Source: Nanobdellota archaeon
GTDB taxonomy: Archaea; Nanobdellota; Nanobdellia; Woesearchaeales; GW2011-AR4
Assembly: GCA_038046385.1 (NCBI GenBank)
Contig: JBBSWH010000005.1
Location: 64,339-128,338, forward strand
Direction: 5' to 3'
Length of the DNA stretch: 64,000 bases
Part shown: positions 2,777-62,977 of the stretch, in pieces
Position numbering within the stretch: the first letter of the stretch is position 1
Layout: the number at the start of each line of letters is the position of its first letter
The notes under the pieces: model-generated
What the model saw: the letters and a program-made list of their open reading frames with translations, nothing else
The model's database searches: none
What the model was told of the DNA's origin: nothing
Made by a program: the position numbers and the translations under genes

Positions 2777-3343
2777 CTATCTATCCACTATCTTCGCCTT
2801 TCCTGTTAAATCTACTATCTTGCTTGGCTTTCCATTTTTTTCGCCTTCGTAAAGGGCAAAATCAACATTTCCTTTTATCTCATCATCAAGGTCTTCGACA
2901 GAAGTCATGTAATCTTCCCCAGTTTTGTTGACAGAAGTTGTAACGATAGGAACGTTTGCCTCTGCAACAATATCCTTTATCCAGTGCTTAGGAATTCTTA
3001 CTCCAAGCGTCTTTAATCCCGGATTGACTTGTTTTGCAACACAGTCTTTTTTTAGCTTAAAGATTAGAGTGTATGGTCCAGGAAGTTTTTTTAGCCAGGC
3101 TTCCGCTTCTTTTTCAACAACGCAGTTTTCTTTTATCCATTCAACAGATGGAGCGATTACAGAAAAAGGGTTTTGTGCGCGTGATTTTATGCTTCTTATT
3201 TCGGAAACAGCTTCTGCATCCTGCGCGTTGCACCCGATGCCATAAATTGTATCTGTCGGATAGATAAATATTTTTCCTTCTGTTATAGAATCAATGATTT
3301 CCTGCTTTTCAAGATTTACCTCATCAAAATTTATTACCCTCAT
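2777..3343 (-). CDS. tsaC: YrdC/Sua5-domain L-threonylcarbamoyladenylate synthase (short TsaC type)
   Basis: 188 aa; YPTDTIYGIGC, LIFKL, GVRIP and TSVNKTGE motifs. Confidence 0.8.
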   Translation of the reverse strand: MRVINFDEVNLEKQEIIDSITEGKIFIYPTDTIYGIGCNAQDAEAVSEIRSIKSRAQNPFSVIAPSVEWIKENCVVEKEAEAWLKKLPGPYTLIFKLKKDCVAKQVNPGLKTLGVRIPKHWIKDIVAEANVPIVTTSVNKTGEDYMTSVEDLDDEIKGNVDFALYEGEKNGKPSKIVDLTGKAKIVDR

Positions 3344-3385: not shown

Positions 3386-3514
3386 CTATCTTAAATAGCC
3401 TCTCATGAACCCTTCTTCAATGCCGCTTATTTCGTCATCATCCATTGATTCCTCAAGGAAATTTGAAGAGTAAAAATCTTCTTGAAATTCATCATACATC
3501 ATCTCTTCTTCCAT
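3386..3514 (-). CDS. Small acidic protein, 42 aa (MEEEMMYDEFQ..EEGFMRGYLR)
   Basis: Own translation; too short for the ORF track. GAGGTGA Shine-Dalgarno about 5 nt upstream of the ATG. Confidence 0.35.
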   Translation of the reverse strand: MEEEMMYDEFQEDFYSSNFLEESMDDDEISGIEEGFMRGYLR

Positions 3515-3519
3515 CTAAA

Positions 3520-3651
3520 TCACCTCTTATGTTTTATTGGAACGCCGCTGAACTGCGCGTCAAAGCTTCTTAATTGCTTGTTTGTCTTTGCTGTTAATTC
3601 TTTCATCTGCTGAAGGAATAATCCTTCAATGAACTTATTGCTTGTTTCCAT
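3520..3651 (-). CDS. Small protein, 43 aa (METSNKFIEGLFLQQMKEL..)
   Basis: Own translation. GAGGTGA SD about 6 nt upstream. Its stop overlaps the SD of the next small ORF. Confidence 0.35.
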   Translation of the reverse strand: METSNKFIEGLFLQQMKELTAKTNKQLRSFDAQFSGVPIKHKR

Positions 3652-3727
3652 TTTTTGTCACCTCTGAGTTTTTACGAAGAGGTTTGTTGAGCTTTGCTCA
3701 ACTTCACCTTTTTTGTTTTTTATTGGG

Positions 3728-3895
3728 CGCCGCGGCTGGGATTCCACGCAAATCGAAGATTTGCTGGGGTGCTCGAAAATCTATGATTTTCGACATTCAC
3801 CCAGAAGGATTAATCCTTTCCAAGATTTGAACCCAGAAGCTCTTTCGAGCAGGAAGGTCTTAGTTTCCCGGAATACCGAGTTATCCTACCGCGGC
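3728..3895 (-). tRNA. Class-II (Ser-shaped) tRNA gene with ~84-nt T-loop insertion; anticodon reads AAG in the 7-nt loop model
   Basis: Minus strand: GCCGCGG-TA-GGA-T-AACTCGGTA-T-TCC-G-GGAAA-CTAAGAC-CTTCC-TGCTCGAAAGAGCTT-CTGGG-TTCAAA[~84 nt]T-CCCAG-CCGCGGC-G. Perfect 7-bp acceptor, long variable arm, G73. Alternative fold has a 5-bp stem GGGAA/TTCCT with a 9-nt loop. Confidence 0.55.
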
Positions 3896-3931
3896 ATAAA
3901 GTTTAAATATCAGTAAACTAATCTTCTCTAT

Positions 3932-3965
3932 GAAGGTCTTAGTTTTCTGGAATGCCGGGTTATCC
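3932..3965 (-). repeat. Partial duplicate of the D-arm to anticodon-arm part of the adjacent tRNA
   Basis: 3932-3965 matches 3853-3886 at 30 of 34 positions, including the ACTAAGACC loop. It lacks an acceptor stem. Confidence 0.6.
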
Positions 3966-4130
3966 GGTTTTCTTTTTTATCTCCAGCCACTGATAGCCAT
4001 ATCCTTCATGAAGTTCTTTGCCACGATTGGATCCGGCATTGATGAATTTCTTAGTGGATTTCCATGGCATTGATAGCACTCTTCAAACCATGGCTTGACT
4101 GATGCTCCGCATGTTACACATCTCATCATT
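3960..4130 (-). CDS. Small protein, 56 aa (MMRCVTCGASVKPWFEEV..)
   Basis: Own codon-by-codon translation. AGGTGAT SD 4-5 nt upstream. Its 3' end overlaps the tRNA-like duplicate. Confidence 0.3.
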
Positions 4131-4325
4131 TGTATCACCTTTGATATTAATTGGCAAGGAAAACCGCGTGTGGGGGCTGCGGTTTTTTCCCTGCCTAATG
4201 GATTTAAGAGTAGAATTGGTTTATATACCTCACACGCACAGATGTCCAGTGTCCAGTGGTTAGTTTCCTTATTGAAAATAATAGATAAGTGCAGATTTAT
4301 ATAGGAAAATAACTTACCATAGGAA

Positions 4326-6034: not shown

Positions 6035-7315
6035 TTATTTCTCTCTTTTTCCTATAACTTTCTTTCCAAGATATTTCTGCAGAACCTTTGGCACTTTTAT
6101 CGTGCCGTCTTTCTGCTGGTGATTTTCAATAATTGCTCGCAAAGCTCTGCTTGTTGCAATTGCGGTGCTGTTTAAAGTGTGGACATATTCTTTTTCGTTG
6201 TCTTTTCTGTATTTTACATTTAATCTTGTTGCCTGATATGCTGTGCAGTTTGAGCATGAAACAACTTCCCTGTACAAATTCTCGCGGGGGAACCATGCCT
6301 CAATGTCATATTTCTTTGCAGCAACAATTCCGATGTCACCTGTGCATACATTAACAACTCTGTAAGGGATTTCAAGTTTTTGGAATATCTCTTCTGCATT
6401 TGCAAGCAACTCTTCGTGGAATTTCCATGAATCTTCAGGCTTGCAAAAGATAAACTGCTCAATCTTGTTGAAGTGATGAACTCTGAAAATTCCTTTTGTG
6501 TCAATGCTGTGGCTTCCCAATTCTTTTCTGAAGCAAGGGCTGCAGCCGGCAAATTTCAAAGGCAGCTTTTCAGGATCGACAACTTCGTTCATCAGCATGG
6601 CTGCAATCGGATGCTCTGATGTTGCAATCAGCATCAAATCTTCCCCTTCAATCTTGTACATCATTGTCTCAAAATCTTTCAAATCTGTGACGCCTTCATA
6701 CGGCTTGCGCCGCATCATCAAAGGAGGCTGAATCATTGTGTAATCTTTTTCTGAAAGCAGGTCTATTGCAAAATTTGTCAGCGCAAGCTCAAGCCTTGCG
6801 ATGTCTCCAATAAGATAATAAAAACCATGGCCGGAAACTTCAGCAGCTTTTTCAAAATTCGCCAGTCCCAACTCCTGCAAAAGTTCTCCATGAGACTTCA
6901 GTTCAAAGTCAAACTTAGGCTTTTCTCCGTGAGTCTTGACAACTTTGTTGTCTTCTGAGTCTTTTCCAGTTGGAACGCTGTCATGCAGAATGTTTGGAAG
7001 GCGCATCATGTAATATTCTACTTTTGTTTTTAATTTTTCAAGCTGCTCATCGCTCTGCTTTACTTTTTCCGGAAGCTCTTTTGCTTCCTGCACTTTTTCC
7101 TTGAAGTCCTTGCCTTGTTTTCTAAGAACATTGATTTCTTCTGTTATCTCGTTTCTTCTCTGCCTTAGCTTCTGGTTTTCCTGCAGCAATTTTCTGTAGT
7201 CAACGTCTGATTTTAACAAATCATCCAGCCATGCAAGCTTTTCCTTGTCGTTTCTCTTTTGAAGATCTTTCCTTACAATTTCAGGATTTTCGCGTATGAA
7301 TCTTATGTCTAACAT
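6035..7315 (-). CDS. serS: Seryl-tRNA synthetase
   Basis: N-terminal coiled-coil arm and class II core (FRVHHFNKIEQF, TAIATSRAL). Confidence 0.95.
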   Translation of the reverse strand: MLDIRFIRENPEIVRKDLQKRNDKEKLAWLDDLLKSDVDYRKLLQENQKLRQRRNEITEEINVLRKQGKDFKEKVQEAKELPEKVKQSDEQLEKLKTKVEYYMMRLPNILHDSVPTGKDSEDNKVVKTHGEKPKFDFELKSHGELLQELGLANFEKAAEVSGHGFYYLIGDIARLELALTNFAIDLLSEKDYTMIQPPLMMRRKPYEGVTDLKDFETMMYKIEGEDLMLIATSEHPIAAMLMNEVVDPEKLPLKFAGCSPCFRKELGSHSIDTKGIFRVHHFNKIEQFIFCKPEDSWKFHEELLANAEEIFQKLEIPYRVVNVCTGDIGIVAAKKYDIEAWFPRENLYREVVSCSNCTAYQATRLNVKYRKDNEKEYVHTLNSTAIATSRALRAIIENHQQKDGTIKVPKVLQKYLGKKVIGKREK

Positions 7316-14519: not shown

Positions 14520-14656
14520 GCCGAGGTCGCATAGCCTGGTATTGCGGTGATTTCTGAAAAGAAACCGTATGATTGCTAGGCTTACGCTTTTTGGAGTAAG
14601 TGTTATAAAAATCCACTGTCCGAAAGGATCCGGGGGTTCAAATCCTCCCCTCGGCG
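14520..14656 (+). tRNA. tRNA-Ser(GCU) with two putative introns (29/30 and 37/38)
   Basis: GCCGAGG-TC-GCA..TGC-G-GTG[14550-14570]GATTGCTA[14579-14610]A-TCCAC-TGTCCGAAAGGATCC-GGGGG-TTCAAAT-CCTCC-CCTCGGC-G. Spliced arm is GTGGA-TTGCTAA-TCCAC. Length check: 84+21+32=137 nt. Confidence 0.7.
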
Positions 14657-18220: not shown

Positions 18221-18332
18221 ATTTAATTTTTATTCAGCAACCTTTATATGAAGAAAATCAAAGATTTTCTAATATAAAAGTTCGAACTGAGTTCGATACT
18301 TTTATAAAACGACTTCTTATACTAAATGCTAT

Positions 18333-18507
18333 AGCGGGGTAGGGCAGCCAGGAGTGCCCGATGAGGTTGCTTATGAATAAGAAGCAGCCGCGGAAGGCTC
18401 ATAAGCACATCGAAATGCCTTAGACACCCATACCAGCCTCTAAAGCTGGGGTTAAAGGTCGGAAGTTCAAAAACCATTAATTTGGTCTGGAAGTCTTCCC
18501 CCCGCTA
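18333..18507 (+). tRNA. Initiator tRNA-Met(CAU) interrupted by four putative introns
   Basis: AGCGGGG..CCCCGCT-A (A1:U72). Removing 18364-18395, 18404-18425, 18432-18455 and 18472-18493 gives ATGGG-CTCATAA-CCCAT, variable AGGTC and T arm GGAAG-TTCAAAT-CTTCC. Length check: 75+32+22+24+22=175 nt. Confidence 0.65.
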
Positions 18508-25642: not shown

Positions 25643-26353
25643 ATGATACAGAAAACGAAAGAAGAGTATTTGAAAGAACATAAGAATTGGGGCAGTATTA
25701 AACTTATCAATTTTCCCGAAAAGAATGAAAGATTGGCAGAGCTTGTCGGCATAATTCTTGGTGATGGTAACCTACATGTTTATACAAAAGGTAGTAATGT
25801 GGGAACTTATTCTTTAAGAATAGCTGGAAATTACATAAAAGATCATGAATATCTTACAAATTATGTGGCTAGTTTGTGCAAAGACTTGTTTATGGTTAAG
25901 CCTAGGACATACAAACAGCCAAATGTAAATTGCATTTATCTTATAATTGATGGTAGGCTAATTATAGATTTTTTAATTGAGATTGGATTAAAAAGCGGCA
26001 ACAAAATAAAAAGTCAAGTTACAATACCCGATTGGATTATGGAAAATAATGAATATCTTAAATCATGCATAAGGGGATTGATAGATACCGATGGCTGCGT
26101 TTATGAAATGCTGCCTCATTGGCCAGGCTTGTTCCAGATTAATTTTGAGAACAGAAACATAACTTTGTTGAGAGATACAAGAGAGGCTTTGATAAAGCTA
26201 GGCTATCACCCTTCTAAAATTTGTGGCAATAGAACGCAATTCGGAACTAAAATTTATATCTCTCGAAAGGAAGAAATCAAAAGATTTTATAAAGAGATTG
26301 GGTCTAGCAACGATAGGAATATAAAACAATTCACTAAAGTGTTTAACTCATAG
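25643..26353 (+). CDS. Free-standing LAGLIDADG homing-endonuclease-like protein
   Basis: Two LAGLIDADG motifs (LAELVGIILGDGNL; IRGLIDTDGCV). GGAGG SD 9 nt before the ATG at 25643. The stop overlaps tRNA-Gln by 2 nt. Confidence 0.8.
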   Translation: MIQKTKEEYLKEHKNWGSIKLINFPEKNERLAELVGIILGDGNLHVYTKGSNVGTYSLRIAGNYIKDHEYLTNYVASLCKDLFMVKPRTYKQPNVNCIYLIIDGRLIIDFLIEIGLKSGNKIKSQVTIPDWIMENNEYLKSCIRGLIDTDGCVYEMLPHWPGLFQINFENRNITLLRDTREALIKLGYHPSKICGNRTQFGTKIYISRKEEIKRFYKEIGSSNDRNIKQFTKVFNS

Positions 26354-26442
26354 CCCCGTAGTCTAGCGGTCACTTGAATAAAGCTGCAGAAGGATTCGGC
26401 CCTTTGGAGGCTGAGGCGGCAGTTCGAATCTGCCCGGGGCTA
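26352..26442 (+). tRNA. tRNA-Gln(UUG) with 18-nt D-loop insertion
   Basis: AGCCCCG-TA-GTCT-AGCGGTCA[26373-26390]AGGAT-T-CGGCC-CTTTGGA-GGCTG-AGGC-GGCAG-TTCGAAT-CTGCC-CGGGGCT-A. A1:U72 as in archaeal tRNA-Gln. Confidence 0.75.
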
Positions 26443-32809: not shown

Positions 32810-33955
32810 TTAGCTCAAGCTGACTGTAACAAAGCACTGCATGCCCTTGCCAAGTCCAAAAGAGCTTAATCTTTCCCCTGAAGTATAAGAAATCCCTATT
32901 TTGCCTTCATTTAAGCCTAAGATTTTTGACAATGATGATTTTATCTTTTCTGTATGCGGCTCAAGCTTTGGTTTTCCTGCCTCTATCATTATGCTTATAT
33001 TGTTTATTGACAGATTCTTCTGCTTCATTTTTTCCAGAATGGCTTCAAGATATTTTTTGCTGTCGGTTATTCCTTTTTTGAACATGCTGTCTGCATAATA
33101 ACCAAGTCCCCTTTCTCCAATTGCAGAGCTTATTGCATTAAAGAGTGCATGCAGGATGATATCTCCATCTGAATTTGCCTCGAATCCGGGTTCGTTTATT
33201 TTATATCCGCCAAGAACCAGTTTTTTGTTTTTATTACTTGTGAAATGATGGCTGTCCTGGCCAAATCCAATTCTGAAATCTGACATTATTTTTTTTGCCA
33301 TGGCAAAATCATTCGGAGTAGTAATCTTGAAATTTTCATAGGAACATTCAACGATTTTTACTTTTTTGTTGAGAGCTTCAACAAGCGATACGTCGTCTGT
33401 TGCAATTATTTTTTTGTTTCTTGCGTTCTTGTATGCTTCTGTAAATAACCCATATTGGATACACTGCGGAGTCTGCATCTGCCAGACATCTTTTCTGCTG
33501 ATTGTCTCTGATGCAAAATTGCCTTTTGTTCTTTTGATTGTGTCCTTTAATCTGAATGCTGCTGCAGACGCTCCGTGTTTTTTTGCAGCTGCAATGCAAT
33601 TTTTTATCTCTTCATCTTTTACAAGGGGATTGCTGCCGTTATGCACGAGAATTATATCTCTGCTTTTGGCTTTTTTTATCGACATTAATCCGTTATAGAC
33701 TGAATCCTGGCGCTCTTTTCCGCCTTCAACTATATTTTTTATTTTGCCGAGAGTATGCTGTTTTTTTATTTCATTTATTTTTTTGAAATTGATTTTTTGA
33801 GAAACTACGGCTATTTCATCTATTGCGCTGCAGCTCTGGAATTTTTCCAGTGTATGCGCAAGTATCGGCTTATTGTTTATCTCGAGAAAAACTTTATTTG
33901 TGTTGCTGTTCATTCGCTTTCCTTTTCCTGCTGCGACGATTATTGCGAAGTTCAT
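32810..33955 (-). CDS. ispDF: Bifunctional IspD cytidylyltransferase / IspF cyclodiphosphate synthase
   Basis: N-domain IIVAAGKGKRM. C-domain GFGQDSHHF..NSDGDIILHAL. Confidence 0.9.
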   Translation of the reverse strand: MNFAIIVAAGKGKRMNSNTNKVFLEINNKPILAHTLEKFQSCSAIDEIAVVSQKINFKKINEIKKQHTLGKIKNIVEGGKERQDSVYNGLMSIKKAKSRDIILVHNGSNPLVKDEEIKNCIAAAKKHGASAAAFRLKDTIKRTKGNFASETISRKDVWQMQTPQCIQYGLFTEAYKNARNKKIIATDDVSLVEALNKKVKIVECSYENFKITTPNDFAMAKKIMSDFRIGFGQDSHHFTSNKNKKLVLGGYKINEPGFEANSDGDIILHALFNAISSAIGERGLGYYADSMFKKGITDSKKYLEAILEKMKQKNLSINNISIMIEAGKPKLEPHTEKIKSSLSKILGLNEGKIGISYTSGERLSSFGLGKGMQCFVTVSLS

Positions 33956-33963
33956 TTTAGAGA

Positions 33964-35124
33964 TTAATTTTTTATTTGTATTTCTTCTTCAATTGTTTTT
34001 TTTGTTTCTTCCTTTGTTTTTCTGTCCGTTTCCAGTATATCCTTCAGGCTTGGATTTTTTATAGTATTGTGACTGTCCATTGCTTTTTTTATCAGCCTTG
34101 CAATGTCCAAAAACTTTATTTTGTTATCAAGAAATGCATGAACTGCTATTTCATTTGCGGCGTTCATCACGCAAGGCAAAGTTCCTCCGATGTTTCCTGC
34201 TTCGTATGCATATTTTAAGCACGGAAATCTTTCCAAATCTGGCTCCCAGAATTCCAAATTTTTTATCTCTTCCAAATTCAATGATTTCTGCATGCTTGAA
34301 AATCTTTTTGGATATGACAATGCATACTGTATCGGGGTTTTCATGTCCGGCATTCCCAATTGCGCAATTACGGACTTGTCATGAAACTCTACAAGGGAAT
34401 GTATTATGCTCTGCGGATGAATTACAACTTTTATTTTATCGTATTCTATATTGTAAAGCCAGTGCGCTTCAATAACTTCAAATCCCTTATTCATCCACGT
34501 CGCACTATCAATTGTGATTTTTGCGCCCATGCTCCAAGTAGGGTGCTTTAATGCATCTTTTGCATTCACATTTTCCAACTGCTCTTTTGTATGTTTTTTG
34601 AAAGGGCCTCCGGAACATGTGATTGTTATTTTCTCAACTTCATTTATTCTTTCTCCATTTAAGCACTGGAAGATTGCAGAATGTTCAGAATCAATCGGCA
34701 TCAAATTAATTTGATTTTTTTTTGCTTCCCCCATTATTATCGAGCCTGCTGCCACCAACGTTTCTTTGTTTGCCAGTGCAATATTCTTCTTTGCCCTTAT
34801 TGCGTTGTACGTCGGCTCAACTCCAATCGATCCTACAAGAGAGTTTATGACTGTGTCTGCTTCCTGCATTGTGGCTATCTTGTTCAATCCCTCAATCCCC
34901 GAATAAACTTGGCACGGAGAGAAGTTAAGCAAATCATCAACCTTGCTTTTGTCCATTATCGCAACTGCTTTTGGCTTAAACTCTTTTATCTGTTTCAGAA
35001 GAAGCTCATGGTTTTTGTTTGATGATAATCCAACAATTTTGAATTCATTCGGGAATTGCCTTACAATATCCAGAGTTTGAGTGCCGATGCTTCCGGTTGA
35101 TCCTAAAATAGAAATGTGTTTCAT
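33964..35124 (-). CDS. dxr: 1-deoxy-D-xylulose 5-phosphate reductoisomerase
   Basis: ILGSTGSIGTQTLD, LANKE, DSEHSAIFQC. Confidence 0.9.
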   Translation of the reverse strand: MKHISILGSTGSIGTQTLDIVRQFPNEFKIVGLSSNKNHELLLKQIKEFKPKAVAIMDKSKVDDLLNFSPCQVYSGIEGLNKIATMQEADTVINSLVGSIGVEPTYNAIRAKKNIALANKETLVAAGSIIMGEAKKNQINLMPIDSEHSAIFQCLNGERINEVEKITITCSGGPFKKHTKEQLENVNAKDALKHPTWSMGAKITIDSATWMNKGFEVIEAHWLYNIEYDKIKVVIHPQSIIHSLVEFHDKSVIAQLGMPDMKTPIQYALSYPKRFSSMQKSLNLEEIKNLEFWEPDLERFPCLKYAYEAGNIGGTLPCVMNAANEIAVHAFLDNKIKFLDIARLIKKAMDSHNTIKNPSLKDILETDRKTKEETKKTIEEEIQIKN

Positions 35125-36191
35125 CTTTCCTGTGCAATCTCTTTAATCTCCTTCAGAAGAACTTCCATGATTTCGCTGTCGTTTATCCTTCTGACTATTT
35201 TTCCATGCTTGTACAGCAGGTGATTTCCCGGTGCGCCAACAATTCCAAGGTCTGCTTTTTTGCTTTCTCCCGGGCCGTTTACAGCGCAGCCCATTATCGC
35301 AATATGAACCGGCTTTTTCATCTTTTCTGTTGCGCCTTCAAGCTGTTCAACAAGCTTTATGACATCAACTTCTGTTCTTGCGCACGTCGGGCAGGATGTG
35401 ATTTGAACGCCGTCGTTTCTTAATCCCAATGATCTTAAAATGTATTTTGCTGTTTTTATTTCTTCTTTTGGATCTTCAGACAATGAAACACGTATTGTGT
35501 CGCCGATGCCTTCTGAAAGCAGCATTCCCATTCCCATTGCAGATTTTATTGCGCCAGGCAATTTTGATCCTGCTTCTGTAACACCAAGATGCAAAGGATA
35601 ATCTGTTTTTGCTGCAAACATCCTGTATGCCTGCACCATCCTTGGAACATCTGAAGCTTTCAATGAAACAATTGTATTGTAAAAATCCAAATCCTCAAGA
35701 ATTTTTATGTGGCGCATTGCGCTTTCTACCATCGCTTCTGCCTTGTAACCATATTTTTCAAACAAATCGCGCTCAAGAGATCCAAGGTTAACTCCGATTC
35801 TTATCGGAACTCCATAATCTTTGCATGCCTTAACAACCTGCTGCACCTTGTCAGTGTTTCCGATGTTTCCTGGATTTATGCGTACTTTGTCAACGTACTT
35901 TACTGCTTCCAATGCAATCCTGTAGTCAAAATGAATATCGACAACAAGAGGGATGCTGATGTTTTCCCTTATTTCCTTCAGAGCTTTTGCAGCTTCCATT
36001 GTCGGAGCAGAAACTCTTACTATGTCGCAGCCGATCTCTTCCAATCCGTGAATCTGTTCAATTGTTGCCTTTGCATCAACAGTATCTGTTGTGGTCATTG
36101 ACTGGATTGGTATCGGTGCATCTCCACCGATGAACAGTTTTCCGACTTTTACTTTGCGGGATTTCCTTCTGATGATGGTGTCTTGAATCAT
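35121..36191 (-). CDS. ispG: HMBPP synthase (GcpE)
   Basis: PIQSMTTTDT, RINPGN, CPTCART, MGCAVNGPGE. Confidence 0.9.
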   Translation of the reverse strand: MIQDTIIRRKSRKVKVGKLFIGGDAPIPIQSMTTTDTVDAKATIEQIHGLEEIGCDIVRVSAPTMEAAKALKEIRENISIPLVVDIHFDYRIALEAVKYVDKVRINPGNIGNTDKVQQVVKACKDYGVPIRIGVNLGSLERDLFEKYGYKAEAMVESAMRHIKILEDLDFYNTIVSLKASDVPRMVQAYRMFAAKTDYPLHLGVTEAGSKLPGAIKSAMGMGMLLSEGIGDTIRVSLSEDPKEEIKTAKYILRSLGLRNDGVQITSCPTCARTEVDVIKLVEQLEGATEKMKKPVHIAIMGCAVNGPGESKKADLGIVGAPGNHLLYKHGKIVRRINDSEIMEVLLKEIKEIAQER

Positions 36192-36223
36192 TTTATTTGT
36201 AGTTTATTTATTTTAAAATTTAA

Positions 36224-36274
36224 TTCCGTGCTTCGCACAGACTTTACAGCTCGCTGGCACCATAACCAGCTCGC
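36224..36274 (+). repeat. Two-hairpin intergenic repeat, copy R3
   Basis: TTCCGT + GTGC-TTC-GCAC + ACA..GCTC-GCTGG-CACCATAA-CCAGC-TCGC, followed by AAATTAATTATAAA. Confidence 0.75.
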
Positions 36275-36298
36275 AAATTAATTATAAAGATTATAAAA

Positions 36299-38281
36299 CT
36301 ATTTTGCTAAAAACTCCGAGATTGATTTTTTTATTCCGTCTTTATCTATTCCTATAAGTTTTTTCTGAATATCCGGTCTTCCGTGCTCGATGAATTCATC
36401 AGGGATTCCAACCATCTTCAGCTCTGATTTTATTCCGTTTTTCTCCAATAGTTCAAGAACTGCGCTTCCAAATCCTCCTGTTACGGTTGATTCCTCAAGT
36501 GTTATTATTTTCTTGAATTTTTTAGCGTATGCTATAATTGTTTTTTCATCGAGAGGCTTTACAAATCTTGCATTTATTATTGAAGCATTGCAGCCAAGCT
36601 CTTCTGATGCCCTCATCGCGTCATAAAGTATCTGGCCTACTCCAATTATCAGTATGTCTTTTCCCTTTTTCATTATTTCAGCTTTTCCAATCTCAAACTT
36701 TTTCATTTCCTGGTCGATTGCAACTCCGACTCCGTTTCCCCTAGGATATCTTATTGCACTCGGTCCATTTATGAGTGTGGCTGTGTAGAGCATGTGCTGC
36801 AGCTCATTCTCGTCTTTTGGAACCATTATTGTCATGTTAGGTATTATTCTCAAGAATGCTGTGTCAAATGGTCCGTTGTGCGTCGGGCCATCATCTCCAA
36901 CCAATCCTGCGCGATCCATTGCAAAAATAACAGGCAATTTTTGAAGTGCAACATCGTGGATTATCATGTCATATGCTCTCTGCAAAAATGTAGAATAGAT
37001 TGCGCACACCGGCTTCATTCCGCTTATTGCGAGGCCTGCTGCAAATGTGACTGCGTGCTGCTCCGCGATTCCAACATCAATTGTCCTTTCCGGGAAAAAT
37101 TTCTCAAATTTATTTAATCCTGTGCCTGATTTCATCGCGGCCGTTATTGCAACGATTTTTTCGTCGTTTGCGGCAACTTTTATCATTGCATTTGCAAAAG
37201 CGTCTGTGTAAGTTATGATATTGCTTTTTGCCGGATGTTTTTTTCCTGATTCGATGTCGAACGGGCTCATGCCGTGGCACTTATCGATGTCCTCGTTTGC
37301 AAATTTGAATCCTTTTCCTTTTTCTGTTTTTACGTGCAGTAGCACCGGCCCTTCCAGATTTTTTATGTTTTGCAAAGCAGGTATAAGTTCGTTAAGGTTG
37401 TGGCCGTCAATAGGCCCGTAGTACTGAAACCCTAAACTTTCAAAGAATGATCCTTCGCTTGTGATTGTTCTTAATCGCTCCTGCACCTTGAAAACCCTTC
37501 CAAGCTCCTCTTCACCCATGCCCGGAATTCTTTCAAGAAGATTTCTTGTTCCCTTCCTTAGCTTGAAGTAGCTTTTATTGAGCACAATCCTGTTAAGATA
37601 GTTTGAAATTGCCCCTACGTTCGGAGAAATACTCATGCGATTGTCATTCAATATTACAAGCATACTTGTTTTCAGGTATCCTGTATTGTTTAAGCCTTCA
37701 AAAGCAAGCCCTGCTGTAAGAGCGCCGTCGCCAATGATTGCAACAACCTTGTGATTTTCTTTTTTGTAATCGCGCGCTTTTGCCATTCCCAAAGCTGCAG
37801 AAATTGAAGTTGAAGCGTGGCCTGCGCCAAAGGAGTCATATTCTGATTCAAAAATATTGCAAAACCCGCATACCCCCTTATACTGCCTTAACGTATGGAA
37901 CTTGTCTTTTCTTCCTGTCACAAGCTTGTGAGTATAGCTCTGATGGCCCGTATCAATCACTATCTTATCCTTTGGGGTATTGAAAACATAATGAACAGCA
38001 AGTGTTAATTCTACTGTTCCTAATGGACCGCCCAAGTGACCGCCGGTTTGAGAGACTGTGTCTATGATTTTGTCCCTGATGTTTTGTGCAAGAATTGGAA
38101 GTTCTTCTACCTTTAATTTCTTAAGGTCTTTTGGAGAGTTTACCTTGTTGAGGAGGTTTATTTTAATCTTTGAGGATTGATTAGGGATTACCTGCAATTG
38201 CTCAGCAATAAGATTACTCTGAGACTTCTTAGATGAAAGCAATTTGTTTAAAGGCTTTTTTTTACTCATCACACACCCCAA
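36299..38281 (-). CDS. dxs: 1-deoxy-D-xylulose-5-phosphate synthase
   Basis: GGHLGGPLG, DTGHQSYTHK, IGDGALT and transketolase-like C-domains. Start may be the ATG at 38269. Confidence 0.9.
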   Translation of the reverse strand: MGCVMSKKKPLNKLLSSKKSQSNLIAEQLQVIPNQSSKIKINLLNKVNSPKDLKKLKVEELPILAQNIRDKIIDTVSQTGGHLGGPLGTVELTLAVHYVFNTPKDKIVIDTGHQSYTHKLVTGRKDKFHTLRQYKGVCGFCNIFESEYDSFGAGHASTSISAALGMAKARDYKKENHKVVAIIGDGALTAGLAFEGLNNTGYLKTSMLVILNDNRMSISPNVGAISNYLNRIVLNKSYFKLRKGTRNLLERIPGMGEEELGRVFKVQERLRTITSEGSFFESLGFQYYGPIDGHNLNELIPALQNIKNLEGPVLLHVKTEKGKGFKFANEDIDKCHGMSPFDIESGKKHPAKSNIITYTDAFANAMIKVAANDEKIVAITAAMKSGTGLNKFEKFFPERTIDVGIAEQHAVTFAAGLAISGMKPVCAIYSTFLQRAYDMIIHDVALQKLPVIFAMDRAGLVGDDGPTHNGPFDTAFLRIIPNMTIMVPKDENELQHMLYTATLINGPSAIRYPRGNGVGVAIDQEMKKFEIGKAEIMKKGKDILIIGVGQILYDAMRASEELGCNASIINARFVKPLDEKTIIAYAKKFKKIITLEESTVTGGFGSAVLELLEKNGIKSELKMVGIPDEFIEHGRPDIQKKLIGIDKDGIKKSISEFLAK

Positions 38282-40126: not shown

Positions 40127-40222
40127 TTCCGTCGCCCACGAAAATCATTGATTTTCGGGGCCCAGAAAATTTATAATTTTCTTGGGCTTCGCGACAAAAA
40201 TTAGGCGGCCCACATTGGCCGC
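40127..40222 (+). repeat. Two-hairpin intergenic repeat, copy R4, with two extra hairpins nested in hairpin 1
   Basis: TTCCGT + GTCGC[CCACGAAAATCATTGATTTTCGGGG + CCCAGAAAATTTATAATTTTCTTGGG]CTTC-GCGAC + ACA..GCGGCC-CACATT-GGCCGC + AAATATATAAA. Confidence 0.7.
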
Positions 40223-49005: not shown

Positions 49006-49022
49006 CTCTTTTTAAAATAACA

Positions 49023-49149
49023 CAGACTTGCCACTCGGCACAATCCCCGACTTAAATATAGCTGAGCAAAGCTCAGCGTATGCTCGTAAATCTTTGATTT
49101 ACGACAAGTCGGGGTTTTGATTGTGCCTCGTAATTAATAGGCAAGTCTG
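49023..49149. other. 127-nt closed multi-stem element downstream of tRNA-His
   Basis: Stems CAGACTTGCC/GGCAAGTCTG (10 bp), GGCACAAT/ATTGTGCC, CCCCGACTT/AAGTCGGGG. Terminal hairpins GCTGAGC-AAA-GCTCAGC and TCGTAAATC-TTT-GATTTACGA. Confidence 0.5.
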
Positions 49150-49153
49150 CGAG

Positions 49154-55244: not shown

Positions 55245-55260
55245 ATTCGCTTACGCTCAT

Positions 55261-55346
55261 GCGGGGGTGGCAGAGCCTGGTCTAATGCGCTAGCTTGAGG
55301 GGCTAGTCCCTAAGTGGGTGCGCGTGTTCGAATCACGTCCCCCGCA
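55261..55346 (+). tRNA. tRNA-Leu(GAG), intron-less
   Basis: GCGGGGG..CTAGC-TTGAGGG-GCTAG, long variable arm, GCGTG-TTCGAAT-CACGT-CCCCCGC-A (A73). Confidence 0.9.
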
Positions 55347-55376
55347 TTTAAAATCAAAATATAAAAAACAAAAAAA

Positions 55377-60277: not shown

Positions 60278-62977
60278 ATGGCTGATTTAAGGGATATTGC
60301 CAAAAAATGGCAGCAGAAATGGGAAGAAAAACGGGTTTTTAGGGCAAATGAAAATCAAAATAAGAAGAAGTCCTACATTTTAGAAATGCTGCCCTATCCT
60401 TCCAACCGCCTCCACATGGGGCATTTGCGAAATTATTCTATTGGGGATGTAATTGCCAGGTATAAAAGAATGCAGGGCTTCAATGTCATTTATGTCATGG
60501 GCTACGATGCTTTTGGTATGCCTGCAGAAAACGCAGCTATCCAACATAATATACTGCCTGATAAATGGACTTTAACAAATATTGACACAATAAGAAATCA
60601 GCAGAAGGAGATGGGATTTTCTTATGACTGGGAACGCGAAGTGGTGACGTGCAAAGAAGAATATTACAAATGGAATCAGTGGATATTTTTGAAATTCTAT
60701 GAAAAGGGATTGGCGTACAAGAAAAAGGCGGCTGTCAACTGGTGCTCATCCTGCAATACAGTATTGGCTAATGAACAGGTTGAAGACGGCAAGTGCTGGA
60801 GATGCAAGAGCGAGGTAACTGAAAAATTCCTTGAGCAGTGGTTCTTCAGAATAACTGATTATGCAGAAGAATTATTGCAGGATATTGAAAAATTATCGCA
60901 TTGGCCGGAAAGAGTAAAAACAATGCAAAAAAACTGGATTGGAAAGAGCTATGGGGTGCTTGTTAATTTCAAGATTAAGGAAAACGATGATTTATTGCAG
61001 ACATTCACCACAAGGCCGGATACAATTTTCGGAGTTACTGCTGTTGTGCTTTCTGTCGAGCATCCAATGGTTATTGATCTTATAAAGGGAACAAAATATG
61101 AAAAATCTGTGAATGATTTTGTCATAGAGACAAAAAAGAAAAGCAGGATTGAAAGAACATCTGCAACTTCAGAAAAAAATGGATTGTTTATCGGAAAGCA
61201 TGCAGTAAACCCTGTTGACGACTCTGAAATTCCAATTTACATTGCAGACTATGTCCTGATGGAATACGGAAGCGGGGCTGTGATGGTTGTTCCTGCTCAT
61301 GACCAACGCGATTTTATTTTTGCTAAAAAATACGGTCTTGAAGTAAAAGCAGTTATAACACCAAAAGGAAACAATATTGATGCAGGAAAAATGGACATGG
61401 CGTATATTGAAGACGGAATCCTTGTTAATTCTTCTCAATTTGATGGTCTTGGCAACAATGACGCTGTTGAAAAAATATCAGAGTGGATGGAATCAAAATC
61501 ATTCGGGAAAAGAACAACGCAGTACAAATTAAGGGACTGGCTCGTTTCCCGTCAGAGGTACTGGGGAACTCCAATTCCGTTTGTTTATTGCGCAAAGTGC
61601 GGAACTATTCCGGTTGCGTATGAAGATCTTCCGGTAAAACTCCCTTCTGCAGACAGTTGCAGCTTCACAGGAAAAGGAAATCCGCTTGAAACATGCGATG
61701 AATTTGTCAATGTAAAATGCCCAAAATGCCATGGCAATGCAAAGCGCGATACAGACACAATGGATACTTTTGTTGATAGCTCGTGGTATTTCTTAAGATA
61801 CTGCTCGCCGAAAAATAACAATGCGCCTTTTGACAAAAAAAGCGCAGAGTACTGGATGCCAGTCGACCAGTACATTGGAGGAATTGAGCATGCAATACTT
61901 CATCTGCTTTACGCAAGGTTCTTTACAAAAGCTTTGCGTGATTTGGGGCTTGTTGCAATAGATGAGCCTTTCTCCAGGTTATTAACTCAGGGAATGGTAA
62001 TAAAAGACGGGGCAAAGATGTCAAAATCAATCGGTAATGTTGTTGACCCTGGAGAGATTTACAACAAGTACGGGCCCGATACTGCAAGGCTTTTCATATT
62101 GTTTGCAGCGCTTCCTGAAAAAGAACTGGATTGGAGCGATAAAGGCGTTAATGGGGCGTTCAGATTTTTAAACAGGGTGGACAAGTTTGTCGATGATAAT
62201 CTTTATTCTATTTCGCTGAAGAATTATGATATTGATAAATTAAATGATAAAGATAAATATGTAATTAGCAAAATGCACCTTACGATAAAAAACGTGACAA
62301 ATCATATTGAGAAGTTTGAATTTTCGCTTGCAATCGGAAAAATAATGGAATATTTTGATATTTTGCAAAAATATAAAGAAAAAAATTCCGGTGTTCTTGG
62401 TGAAGCTGTAAAAAATCTCTCTTTCATGATGCTGCCTTTTACGCCTCATTTAAGCGAAGAGATATGGCACAGGATAAAGGGAAATGGTTTTGCATCGGTT
62501 CATGAATGGCCTTCCTTTAATGAAGAGATGATTGACAAAAAGGCGGAGGCGATTGCAGAATTTATTTCTGCTACCAGAAAAGACATTGTTGAAGTGCTTA
62601 GGCTGACAAAGACAGAGAATCCTAATGGGATAAAGCTGTTTGTTGCCGAGAAATGGAAATATGATTTTATTCAGATTCTTAAGCAGGAAATGATAAAAAC
62701 AAGAAATGTTGGAGAAATACTAAAAAAAATAATGTCAACTGACCTGAAAATTTACGGGCAGGAGATAACAAAGATTGTTCCGCGTCTTGTTAATGACGAG
62801 ACTAGAATTCCGCATACCGTGATAGGGCAGGAAGCGGAGTTTCATGCATTGAATGATGCTTCAAATGGGCTTTTAGAAGAATTTGGATGTAATATTGAAG
62901 TTATTGTAGCTGAAATGTCGAAAGATGCAAAGGCGAAGCAGTCTTTGCCGGGAAAAGCCGCAATATTAATTATGTAA
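60278..62977 (+). CDS. leuS: Leucyl-tRNA synthetase, bacterial-type sequence
   Basis: [56 protein letters not shown]. Near-colinear with my recall of the E. coli LeuRS N-terminal 200 aa. Confidence 0.95.

Follow-up and report, generated by a model that had tools for sequence, protein, structure and literature searches.

Does a tRNA with the body of a serine tRNA and an anticodon of the leucine box mean that an archaeon reads leucine codons as serine? The question is raised by a gene at positions 3728-3895, minus strand, of the window analyzed here, a stretch of 64,000 nt from contig JBBSWH010000005.1 (positions 64,339 to 128,338) of a Nanobdellota archaeon (assembly GCA_038046385.1). An initial annotation had described this gene as a Ser-shaped tRNA with the anticodon AAG and an insertion of ~84 nt in the T loop, and had proposed that it inserts Ser at CUU and CUC, as in the CUG-clade yeasts, or else that it is a decaying copy or a regulatory tRNA. 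We consider it likely that the gene is a dispensable, fast-changing accessory tRNA of Ser type, of which this copy has been disrupted by a repeat within its intron, and we found no evidence that Leu codons are read as Ser; the second proposal came close to the evidence and was broadly right.

Read on the minus strand from 3895 to 3728, the gene starts with GCCGCGG-TA-GGAT/AACTCGGTA/TTCC-G-GGAAA-CTAAGAC-CTTCC and continues with TGCTCGAAAGAGCTT-CTGGG-TTCAAA[84 nt]T-CCCAG-CCGCGGC-G. In this genomic form, it was called as a tRNA by neither ARAGORN nor Rfam. The Rfam run, which applied gathering and E-value thresholds to the window and four homologous loci, matched no other family at the tRNA locus and missed the candidate because its T-loop intron hides it. 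Once spliced in silico, the 84-mer was recognized by ARAGORN as a full tRNA with the anticodon AAG, at the position given by the initial annotation.

The sequence and the ARAGORN call on the spliced form also bore out the other features first described, namely G73, a 3-bp D stem (with U13.U22) and a 15-nt variable arm. The acceptor stem has 7 bp and the T stem 5 bp, U33 and A37 are in place, and so are the nucleotides of the tertiary pairs (U8, A14, G18G19, and A15:U48); the T loop TTCRAAT and the 7/5 cloverleaf are those of a canonical archaeal tRNA-Ser of class II. The Ser anticodon (NGA or GCU) is lacking, as the window has AAG and the orthologues GAC, GAU, or CAG. The anticodon arm had been read as an uninterrupted 5-bp stem, with a 9-nt loop as the alternative; of these, the detail offered as the alternative applies: the pair 31.39 is an A.C mismatch, unpaired in every homologue, making the loop effectively 9 nt. 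The proposed parallel with the tRNA-Ser(GCU) gene at 14520-14656 was sound. This comparator carries two introns (29/30 and 37/38), is 84 nt long once spliced, and is identical to the candidate at 60 of 84 positions, against 45 of 84 for tRNA-Leu(GAG). The two share G73, the D-arm and variable-arm layout, and the first four acceptor pairs. Conversely, tRNA-Leu(GAG), the A73-bearing gene reported earlier and indeed present at 55260-55347, differs from the candidate by its discriminator (A73, not G73) and its variable-arm layout, and the D loop of the candidate is without the 20a/20b positions of the Leu type. This is a real class-II tRNA gene of the Ser type that contains an intron.

The insertion in the T loop is present and structured, as first described, but it is composite: an ordinary archaeal bulge-helix-bulge (BHB) intron at position 59/60 with a small repeated hairpin element added to it. 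A strain variant in run X11 has identical exons, exon 1 included, and carries 21 nt in place of window positions 3744-3815. Its 33-nt intron forms a perfect hBHBh' motif, in which the 5-bp T stem is the outer helix, TTCA/TGAA the central helix, and an 11-bp stem the inner helix, with two AAT bulges. The same canonical geometry (h = 5, H = 4, h' = 10-11) was found at the homologous loci L010, L034, and L042, and this canonical intron measures 32-33 nt and lies at 59/60. BHB motifs are cleaved after the second bulge nucleotide; joining the exons of the X11 allele by this rule yields TTCAAAT, which therefore places the intron at 59/60. The initiator-like tRNA at 18333 in the same genome has a 59/60 intron of the same kind.

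In the window, the 84 nt consist of the remains of this ancestral intron (3796-3825 and 3742-3743) and a 52-nt insertion of two perfect hairpins, which has TGAA, a strand of the central helix, on one side and the 3' bulge AAT on the other. This insertion was found in no homologue and is missing from the X11 allele. The 5' half of the motif is kept (TTCA[AA|T] and a 7-bp h'), while the 3' bulge has become a 55-nt two-hairpin loop, so the window allele is probably not spliced into a working tRNA. BHB scans of this allele found no alternative motif that restores the T loop. A strict BHB at pre-tRNA positions 31/97, in which the D arm and the insert pair in a 9-bp helix, was set aside as fortuitous, as it depends on the allele-specific insertion absent from all homologues; the insertion was also rejected as a nested second intron, for want of a BHB that would restore the outer motif.

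A near-identical 56-nt copy of 3742-3797 was seen in a different context in runs X1, X2, X5, and X6, at similar depth, and hairpins related to the insertion occur at 18252, 40139, and 49085 in the window. Recurrent hairpin modules, of the forms CGAAAATC-NNN-GATTTTCG and GYTGAGCAAAGCTCARC, are found at 3774-3792, 18252-18270, 40139-40157, and 49085-49103, and at 3685-3701 and 49061-49077. Several of them lie close to tRNA genes, and for 3680-3714 as well as for 3742-3797, one more copy exists at another place in this population. Just 3' of tRNA-His, positions 49010-49150 form a large nested multi-hairpin element. These modules look like small palindromic repeat elements.

Homologues of the tRNA were recovered by a metagenome pattern scan and by look-ups through homologues of the 43-aa open reading frame (ORF) that lies downstream, and nine further loci carry one. 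ARAGORN called the anticodon of the spliced homologues as AAG (L011), GAC (L010, L032/L034, and L041), or GAU (L057); L042 was called GAC after both its insertions were removed, and a CAG variant is implied by the position-wise differences reported for runs X11/X12. Overall, GAC is present in most relatives and AAG in the window and two others, and the anticodon is always N-A-N (Val, Leu, or Ile). Among eight aligned mature sequences, five base pairs (one in the acceptor stem, three in the anticodon stem, and one in the variable arm) changed on both sides and none on one side only, a covariation score reached by 0 of 500 shuffles. The variable and T arms are 96-98% identical across the family, and the anticodon arm is variable. 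Covariation alongside a changing anticodon means that the tRNA shape is selected and the anticodon is not fixed.

Truncated and broken copies of the gene are also common, as is its loss. In L012, the 3' acceptor strand is longer by 2 nt, in L014-L017, the 5' acceptor strand is lacking, and L019 is a tandem array of 5' halves (at least three units of a 79-nt repeat) with no 3' half. Independently, a hairpin of 36 nt (GCATGCGAG-CGA-CTCGCATGC, about 1085-1120) has been inserted into L042 at tRNA position 65/66, between the T stem and the 3' acceptor strand, and no BHB could be recognized in it. The gene is absent at L013, L018, L021-L025, L026-L031, and L047; at L021, where the neighboring proteins are 83-96% identical to those of the window, a zinc-ribbon (Zn-ribbon) ORF directly precedes the 43-aa ORF. 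Among GTDB genomes, seven loci were examined for synteny with Sua5, and the tRNA adjoins Sua5 in none. Judged from these sequences, the cloverleaf is kept by compensatory changes while the anticodon is left unfixed, and the family is thus a selected tRNA shape that is dispensable and often lost: a small accessory family that occupies a single chromosomal site in one subgroup of the Woesearchaeota/Nanoarchaeota (DPANN) of groundwater.

The contigs of L014, L016, L017, L019, and L046 end at or inside the tRNA or its 5'-half repeat, suggesting that the repeat, or else heterogeneity among strains, broke the assemblies at this locus.

We then considered how CUU and CUC are decoded. Leucyl-tRNA synthetase (LeuRS) was aligned with 132 sequences out of the 150 top representatives of a full HMMER search. 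The columns of the 19 CTT codons of the window gene hold on average 0.44 Leu, 0.64 LIVMF, and 0.03 Ser, and those of the four CTC codons 0.69 Leu, 0.89 LIVMF, and 0.02 Ser. The TTA and TTG columns contain 0.51-0.53 Leu, and the columns of Ser codons 0.01-0.06 Leu and 0.23-0.36 Ser. No CTY codon falls in a Ser-conserved column of this alignment, and CTT is the commonest Leu codon of the gene (22 of 65). Similarly, 20 of 21 CTT/CTC codons of the window are aligned with Leu in the gene-free locus L021, and the normal tRNA-Leu(GAG) for CUU/CUC is present in the window. CUU and CUC are ordinary Leu codons in this genome. The check that the initial annotation had suggested, that of conserved Leu positions encoded by CTT/CTC, went against its own proposal of Ser insertion in both the LeuRS alignment and the L021 comparison, as did the varying anticodon of the family and the lost 3' splice motif.

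The tRNA is preceded by a second element, a partial copy of its own 5' half without the acceptor strand (Table 1). The direct repeat formed by the copy and the tRNA is 34 nt long and 88% identical, and two matches were observed in the window against 0.14 expected. The spacer between them keeps a length of 35-36 nt at all loci though its distal 20 nt diverge: among six loci, identity is 0.80 in the copy (0.88 within the GAC clade), 0.93 in the 15 nt abutting the tRNA, and 0.55 in the intervening 20 nt. The nearly invariant 15 nt contain, on the plus strand, AAAG-TTTAAATA (3898-3909), which resembles a TFB-recognition element (BRE) followed by a TATA box. This box lies at -15..-7 from the tRNA +1; the TATA boxes of tRNA-Ser and of the initiator tRNA lie at about -31..-24. 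Under archaeal promoter geometry, it is too close to serve as a promoter for the tRNA, and the start that it predicts on the plus strand, ~26 nt downstream, falls on the base with which the copy opens (~3932). On that strand, the copy is succeeded by a hairpin, a T-run, or both; in the window, the G.U pairs of this hairpin correspond to A.C mismatches on the tRNA-sense strand.

The copy also follows the tRNA of its own genome. Its core (nt 29-42) matches the tRNA of the same genome at 13-14 of 14 positions in seven loci of three anticodon clades (AAG, GAC, and GAU) but those of other clades at only 4-10 of 14; in the D-arm part, 3-6 of 19 positions differ from the own tRNA. Among the duplexes predicted between copy and tRNA, one of them of 34 bp, those within a clade are the strongest. 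G>A changes that break the stems of the copy remain compatible with G.U pairing on the plus strand only, and copy and tRNA decay or vanish together across loci. The copy is not a decaying fragment. These sequence patterns suggest that its plus strand encodes a candidate antisense RNA of ~47 nt (~3932-3978), complementary to tRNA nt 8-43, which would be the simplest functional reading of the copy. Short-tract gene conversion or unequal crossing-over within the 79-nt repeat array (L019) is the non-functional alternative. Such a co-varying copy, a candidate antisense element, is potentially novel.

Other readings of the copy were tried and rejected. It could not act as the 5' half of a split tRNA, joined to the shared 3' half by alternative splicing or trans-splicing, having no acceptor strand, and arms of the same sense cannot form a BHB. 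It is not the attachment site of a mobile element, as there is no second copy within the 64-kb window and no recombinase-bearing element, only the 35-nt spacer. When viral contigs were scanned with two patterns, one gave no match and the other a single chance match in a stretch without a tRNA. A diversity-generating retroelement was dismissed, as the differences between copy and gene are not adenine-specific.

Table 1 Features at and around the Ser-type tRNA gene, in window coordinates.
Feature	Position	Strand	Basis
Exon 1, tRNA nt 1-59 (acceptor 5' strand through T stem 5' strand, TTCAAA)	3826..3895	-	Sequence; ARAGORN on spliced form
Anticodon AAG (A34 A35 G36), loop C32-U33-AAG-A37-C38, flanked by the A31.C39 mismatch	3859..3861	-	
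Exon 2, tRNA nt 60-73 (T, CCCAG, CCGCGGC, discriminator G73 at 3728)	3728..3741	-	
Intervening sequence, 84 nt, at tRNA position 59/60	3742..3825	-	BHB scans; X11 allele comparison
Double-hairpin insertion, 52 nt (TCGAAAATC-ATA-GATTTTCGA; GCAAATC-TTC-GATTTGC)	3744..3795	-	Repeated element
Partial copy of tRNA 5' half (D arm and anticodon arm, without acceptor strand)	3931..3965	-	Direct repeat
Spacer, 35 nt	3896..3930	.	Between copy and tRNA
Hairpin GCCGGG-TTA-TCCGGT, then TTTCTTTTTT	3954..3978	+	Terminator-like
Zn-ribbon small ORF (CxxC..CxxC, 50-53 aa), immediately upstream	3977..4138	-	
Two conserved small ORFs downstream of the tRNA: 43 aa (3520-3651) and acidic 42 aa (3386-3514)	3386..3651	-	
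Probable cluster promoter GTATATAAAC (4219-4228), upstream motif ACCACTGGACACTGGACAT, leader hairpin (4153-4195)	4153..4260	-	

Copy and tRNA belong to a cluster on one strand, in the order promoter-like box and leader hairpin, Zn-ribbon ORF, copy, spacer, tRNA, two small ORFs, Sua5/YrdC (2777-3343), and metallophosphoesterase. The box and leader region holds the sole suitably positioned candidate promoter ahead of the tRNA on the minus strand, and it probably drives the whole cluster. Across L010, L011, L012, L015, L018, L021, L026, L041, and L047, where the leader region was compared, the motif ACCACTGGACACTGGACAT, the TATA-like box, and the leader hairpin (GCAGGAAAA...CACCCCC...TTTCCTGC) precede the cluster in all relatives, whether the tRNA is present or not, and this leader of the small-ORF/Sua5 cluster may be a regulatory leader or a small RNA. 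The Zn-ribbon ORF is found at some tRNA-free loci and is missing from some tRNA-bearing ones. The 43-aa ORF family counts 104 homologues, on Nanoarchaeota-type metagenome contigs. No family matched any of the three small ORFs at a significant score in Pfam and NCBIfam. Their products have features of their own, with an invariant QLRSFDAQ in the 40-43-aa protein and the ending EEGFMxGYL in the acidic protein of ~42 aa; the Zn-ribbon protein is of ~50 aa. The tRNA as a dedicated decoder for these neighbors was rejected on codon content: the small ORFs of the GAC clade contain neither GTC nor GTT. Between the tRNA and the 43-aa ORF, a 46-nt insertion (3658-3703, minus strand) with duplicated AGGTGA flanks resembling a Shine-Dalgarno sequence is absent from L021.

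The window as a whole has a G+C content of 38% and contains an archaeal RNase P RNA. Its nearest relatives among GTDB genomes are Woesearchaeota/Nanoarchaeota, and its sequence is also found in groundwater metagenomes. Three intron-bearing tRNA genes on the plus strand were missed by ARAGORN and by Rfam at gathering thresholds: the comparator at 14520-14656, the initiator-like tRNA (AGCGGGG..., CAU) at 18333-18507 with several introns, one of them at 59/60, and a tRNA(UUG) at 26352-26442 with an intron of ~20 nt in the D loop. LeuRS (60278-62977, with the PF13603 editing domain) and the seryl-tRNA synthetase (SerRS; 6035-7315) are of bacterial type, and a run of methylerythritol phosphate (MEP) pathway genes (IspDF, Dxr, and Dxs) lies in 32810-38281. 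These bacterial-type synthetases and the MEP-pathway genes were likely acquired from bacteria.

How might such a tRNA work? It appears to be without a properly spaced promoter of its own, and read-through from the cluster promoter would be its only source. The anticodon plays no part in recognition by SerRS (PMC5389517, PMC6827378), so intact members of the family would be serylated whatever their anticodon. The Ser-charged tRNA could then be a low-level mistranslator at Val, Leu, or Ile codons, or a Ser-tRNA with a non-translational (non-ribosomal) role, and the conserved 5'-half copy could be its partner element, most simply as an antisense RNA. Several points weigh against our view of a dispensable tRNA whose copy in the window is disrupted. 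The conserved cloverleaf and the upstream copy imply that the family is not simply junk, and the codon test is blind to rare (<5-10%) misincorporation of Ser. The disrupted splice site might still be processed, given the relaxed specificity of DPANN splicing endonucleases (PMC5829648). The exons are intact and the same as those of the short-intron allele, so any inactivation would be recent. Finally, no RNA runs with the sequence of the window or of L010 were found.

Other explanations were weighed against this one. That the tRNA is expressed, spliced, serylated, and used, with CUU/CUC wholly or substantially Ser through a CUG-clade-like reassignment or programmed ambiguity, would suit Ser-type identity elements combined with a Leu-box anticodon, a SerRS blind to the anticodon, and a SerRS gene 2 kb upstream. 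We nevertheless hold it to be highly improbable: in LeuRS, CTT/CTC align with Leu and never with conserved Ser, 20 of 21 such codons of the window align with Leu at the gene-free locus, CTT is the commonest Leu codon of LeuRS, tRNA-Leu(GAG) is present, the orthologues have other anticodons, the 3' splice motif is broken, and the adjacency to SerRS is not conserved in relatives. A class-II isoacceptor charged according to its anticodon (Leu, or Val/Ile in relatives) fits the reliance of ValRS and IleRS on the anticodon. A tRNA-like signal for RNase P/RNase Z processing of a polycistronic RNA, placed between the Zn-ribbon ORF and the small ORFs and indifferent to the anticodon, fits the operon-like cluster, the missing promoter, and the RNase P RNA in the window. 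We find this pair of ideas improbable. Bacterial-type LeuRS requires A73, and the LeuRS here is of that type while the tRNA has G73; moreover, tRNA-Leu(GAG) would make the isoacceptor redundant, and a cognate decoder would not be expected to switch among three amino-acid boxes. Many relatives have a functioning cluster that lacks the element, and the anticodon is not mirrored in the codon content of the adjacent small ORFs.

The copy gives rise to the two remaining explanations, which part over its function. In one, a Ser-charged mistranslator tRNA would be neutralized by the co-evolving ~47-nt antisense RNA predicted from the copy, in a toxin-antitoxin-like or self-limiting module; the antisense would pair with the D and anticodon arms (nt 8-43) of the tRNA or its precursor, their co-evolution would explain the matched arms, and the anticodon would hop among hydrophobic (N-A-N) boxes, forming a two-part RNA module not described before. 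The BRE/TATA-like sequence with its predicted start at the first base of the copy, the spacer of fixed length and diverging sequence, the T-run with or without a hairpin, the conservation of the copy at 0.88, far above the 0.58 of the adjacent spacer, the match of its core to the own tRNA, the within-clade duplexes, the G.U-compatible changes, and the joint decay all speak for it, as does the frequent proximity of bacterial allo-tRNAs to toxin-antitoxin systems (PMC5389517). However, its promoter and terminator are consensus-level predictions, adjacent units of L019 carry different arms, gene conversion or unequal crossing-over could likewise keep the arms alike, and the vertical inheritance at one site is unlike mobile toxin-antitoxin modules. 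We regard such a module as possible but unlikely. The other explanation is a neutral relic, a tRNA-Ser paralogue that was partly duplicated, or hit by a mobile element carrying a 5' half of its own, and has been drifting and decaying since. Neither part would be functional, and the likeness of copy and gene would persist through gene conversion or through unequal crossing-over among 79-nt tandem units. It would account for the frequent truncations, indels, and losses, the L019 array, and the repeat insertions in the window and L042, and a tRNA 5' fragment upstream of an intact gene has a precedent in Caldiarchaeum, through mobile-element integration (PMC3293823). Yet the stem changes are all compensatory, and the BHB intron is maintained with covariation in h'; the 20 nt that separate the copy from the TATA-like box are much less conserved than either, gene conversion should homogenize the D arm as well, and only 35 nt separate the copies, with no recombinase or element and no match in the viral contigs scanned. 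A neutral relic therefore seems to us quite unlikely. The dispensable accessory tRNA of Ser type, disrupted in the window, is the explanation that we retain.

A Ser-shaped tRNA with a Leu anticodon in a metagenome-assembled DPANN genome should thus not be taken as a code change. This gene and no fewer than three more intron-bearing tRNAs of the 64-kb window escape the standard tRNA finders. At a single locus, the family shows a clear evolutionary series in which the anticodon is of the Val, Leu, or Ile type, the stems change in a compensatory way, and the gene decays time and again. It is therefore a natural setting in which to study how serylation blind to the anticodon is tolerated or exploited by cells. 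An anti-tRNA RNA, should the upstream copy indeed encode one, would be a new way to control a tRNA, and in these DPANN archaea it might act together with the tRNA as a toxin/antitoxin built on a tRNA or as a self-limiting mistranslation switch.

A literature search found no description of such a family, with a long variable arm and foreign anticodons, in archaea. The tRNA-Ser(CAG) of the CUG-clade yeasts is a Ser-type tRNA with a Leu-box anticodon and resembles the window gene in both respects. In those yeasts, however, the tRNA is conserved in the clade, the Leu decoder of CUG is absent, and CUG lies off conserved Leu positions; none of the three holds here.

The intron has its closest counterparts among the archaeal BHB introns and disrupted tRNA genes. 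These (PMC4033280, PMC4090602, and PMC5829648) share the 59/60 position in the T loop and the helix-bulge-helix-bulge-helix geometry, and also the occurrence of several introns per gene, as elsewhere in this genome, and DPANN-type endonucleases accepting non-canonical positions. The window allele departs from them in its 3' bulge, turned into a 55-nt loop by the hairpin insertion, and is a disrupted intron rather than a described class. The tRNA-Thr of Caldiarchaeum subterraneum (PMC3293823) likewise has a 5' fragment upstream of an intact intron-bearing gene, at a locus that is heterogeneous in populations. There, a 1.8-kb recombinase-encoding element separates the two, whereas here, a spacer of conserved length (35 nt) does, and the fragment is itself conserved, with an anticodon arm that tracks that of the gene.

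As to the tRNA itself, the bacterial allo-tRNAs (PMC5389517; Mukai et al., Nucleic Acids Res 2017) are alike in their long variable arm and G73/U73, implying Ser identity, in their diverse non-Ser anticodons and many degenerate or inactive copies, and in suspected toxin-antitoxin or mobile links rather than genome-wide recoding. They have an 8/4 or 9/3 acceptor/T-stem architecture, unlike the canonical 7/5 of this archaeal family, which is further set apart by its 59/60 BHB intron, its N-A-N anticodons only, its single conserved locus, and its matched 5'-half copy. Hence, the Ser identity elements and the diverse anticodons are shared with the allo-tRNAs, but the architecture, neither 8/4 nor 9/3, places the family outside that group. 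The nev-/nov-tRNAs of nematodes and eukaryotes (PMC4300185) also combine a class-II body with class-I anticodons (Gly and Ile there, Val and Ile here) and a potential for misacylation without detectable proteome-wide recoding; they are charged with Leu in vitro and form multi-copy families, whereas the tRNA described here has Ser identity elements and is single-copy in a DPANN archaeon. This family would extend the tRNAs with a long variable arm and a "wrong" anticodon, known as allo-tRNAs in bacteria and nev-tRNAs in nematodes, to the archaea, and may be seen as their archaeal analogue.

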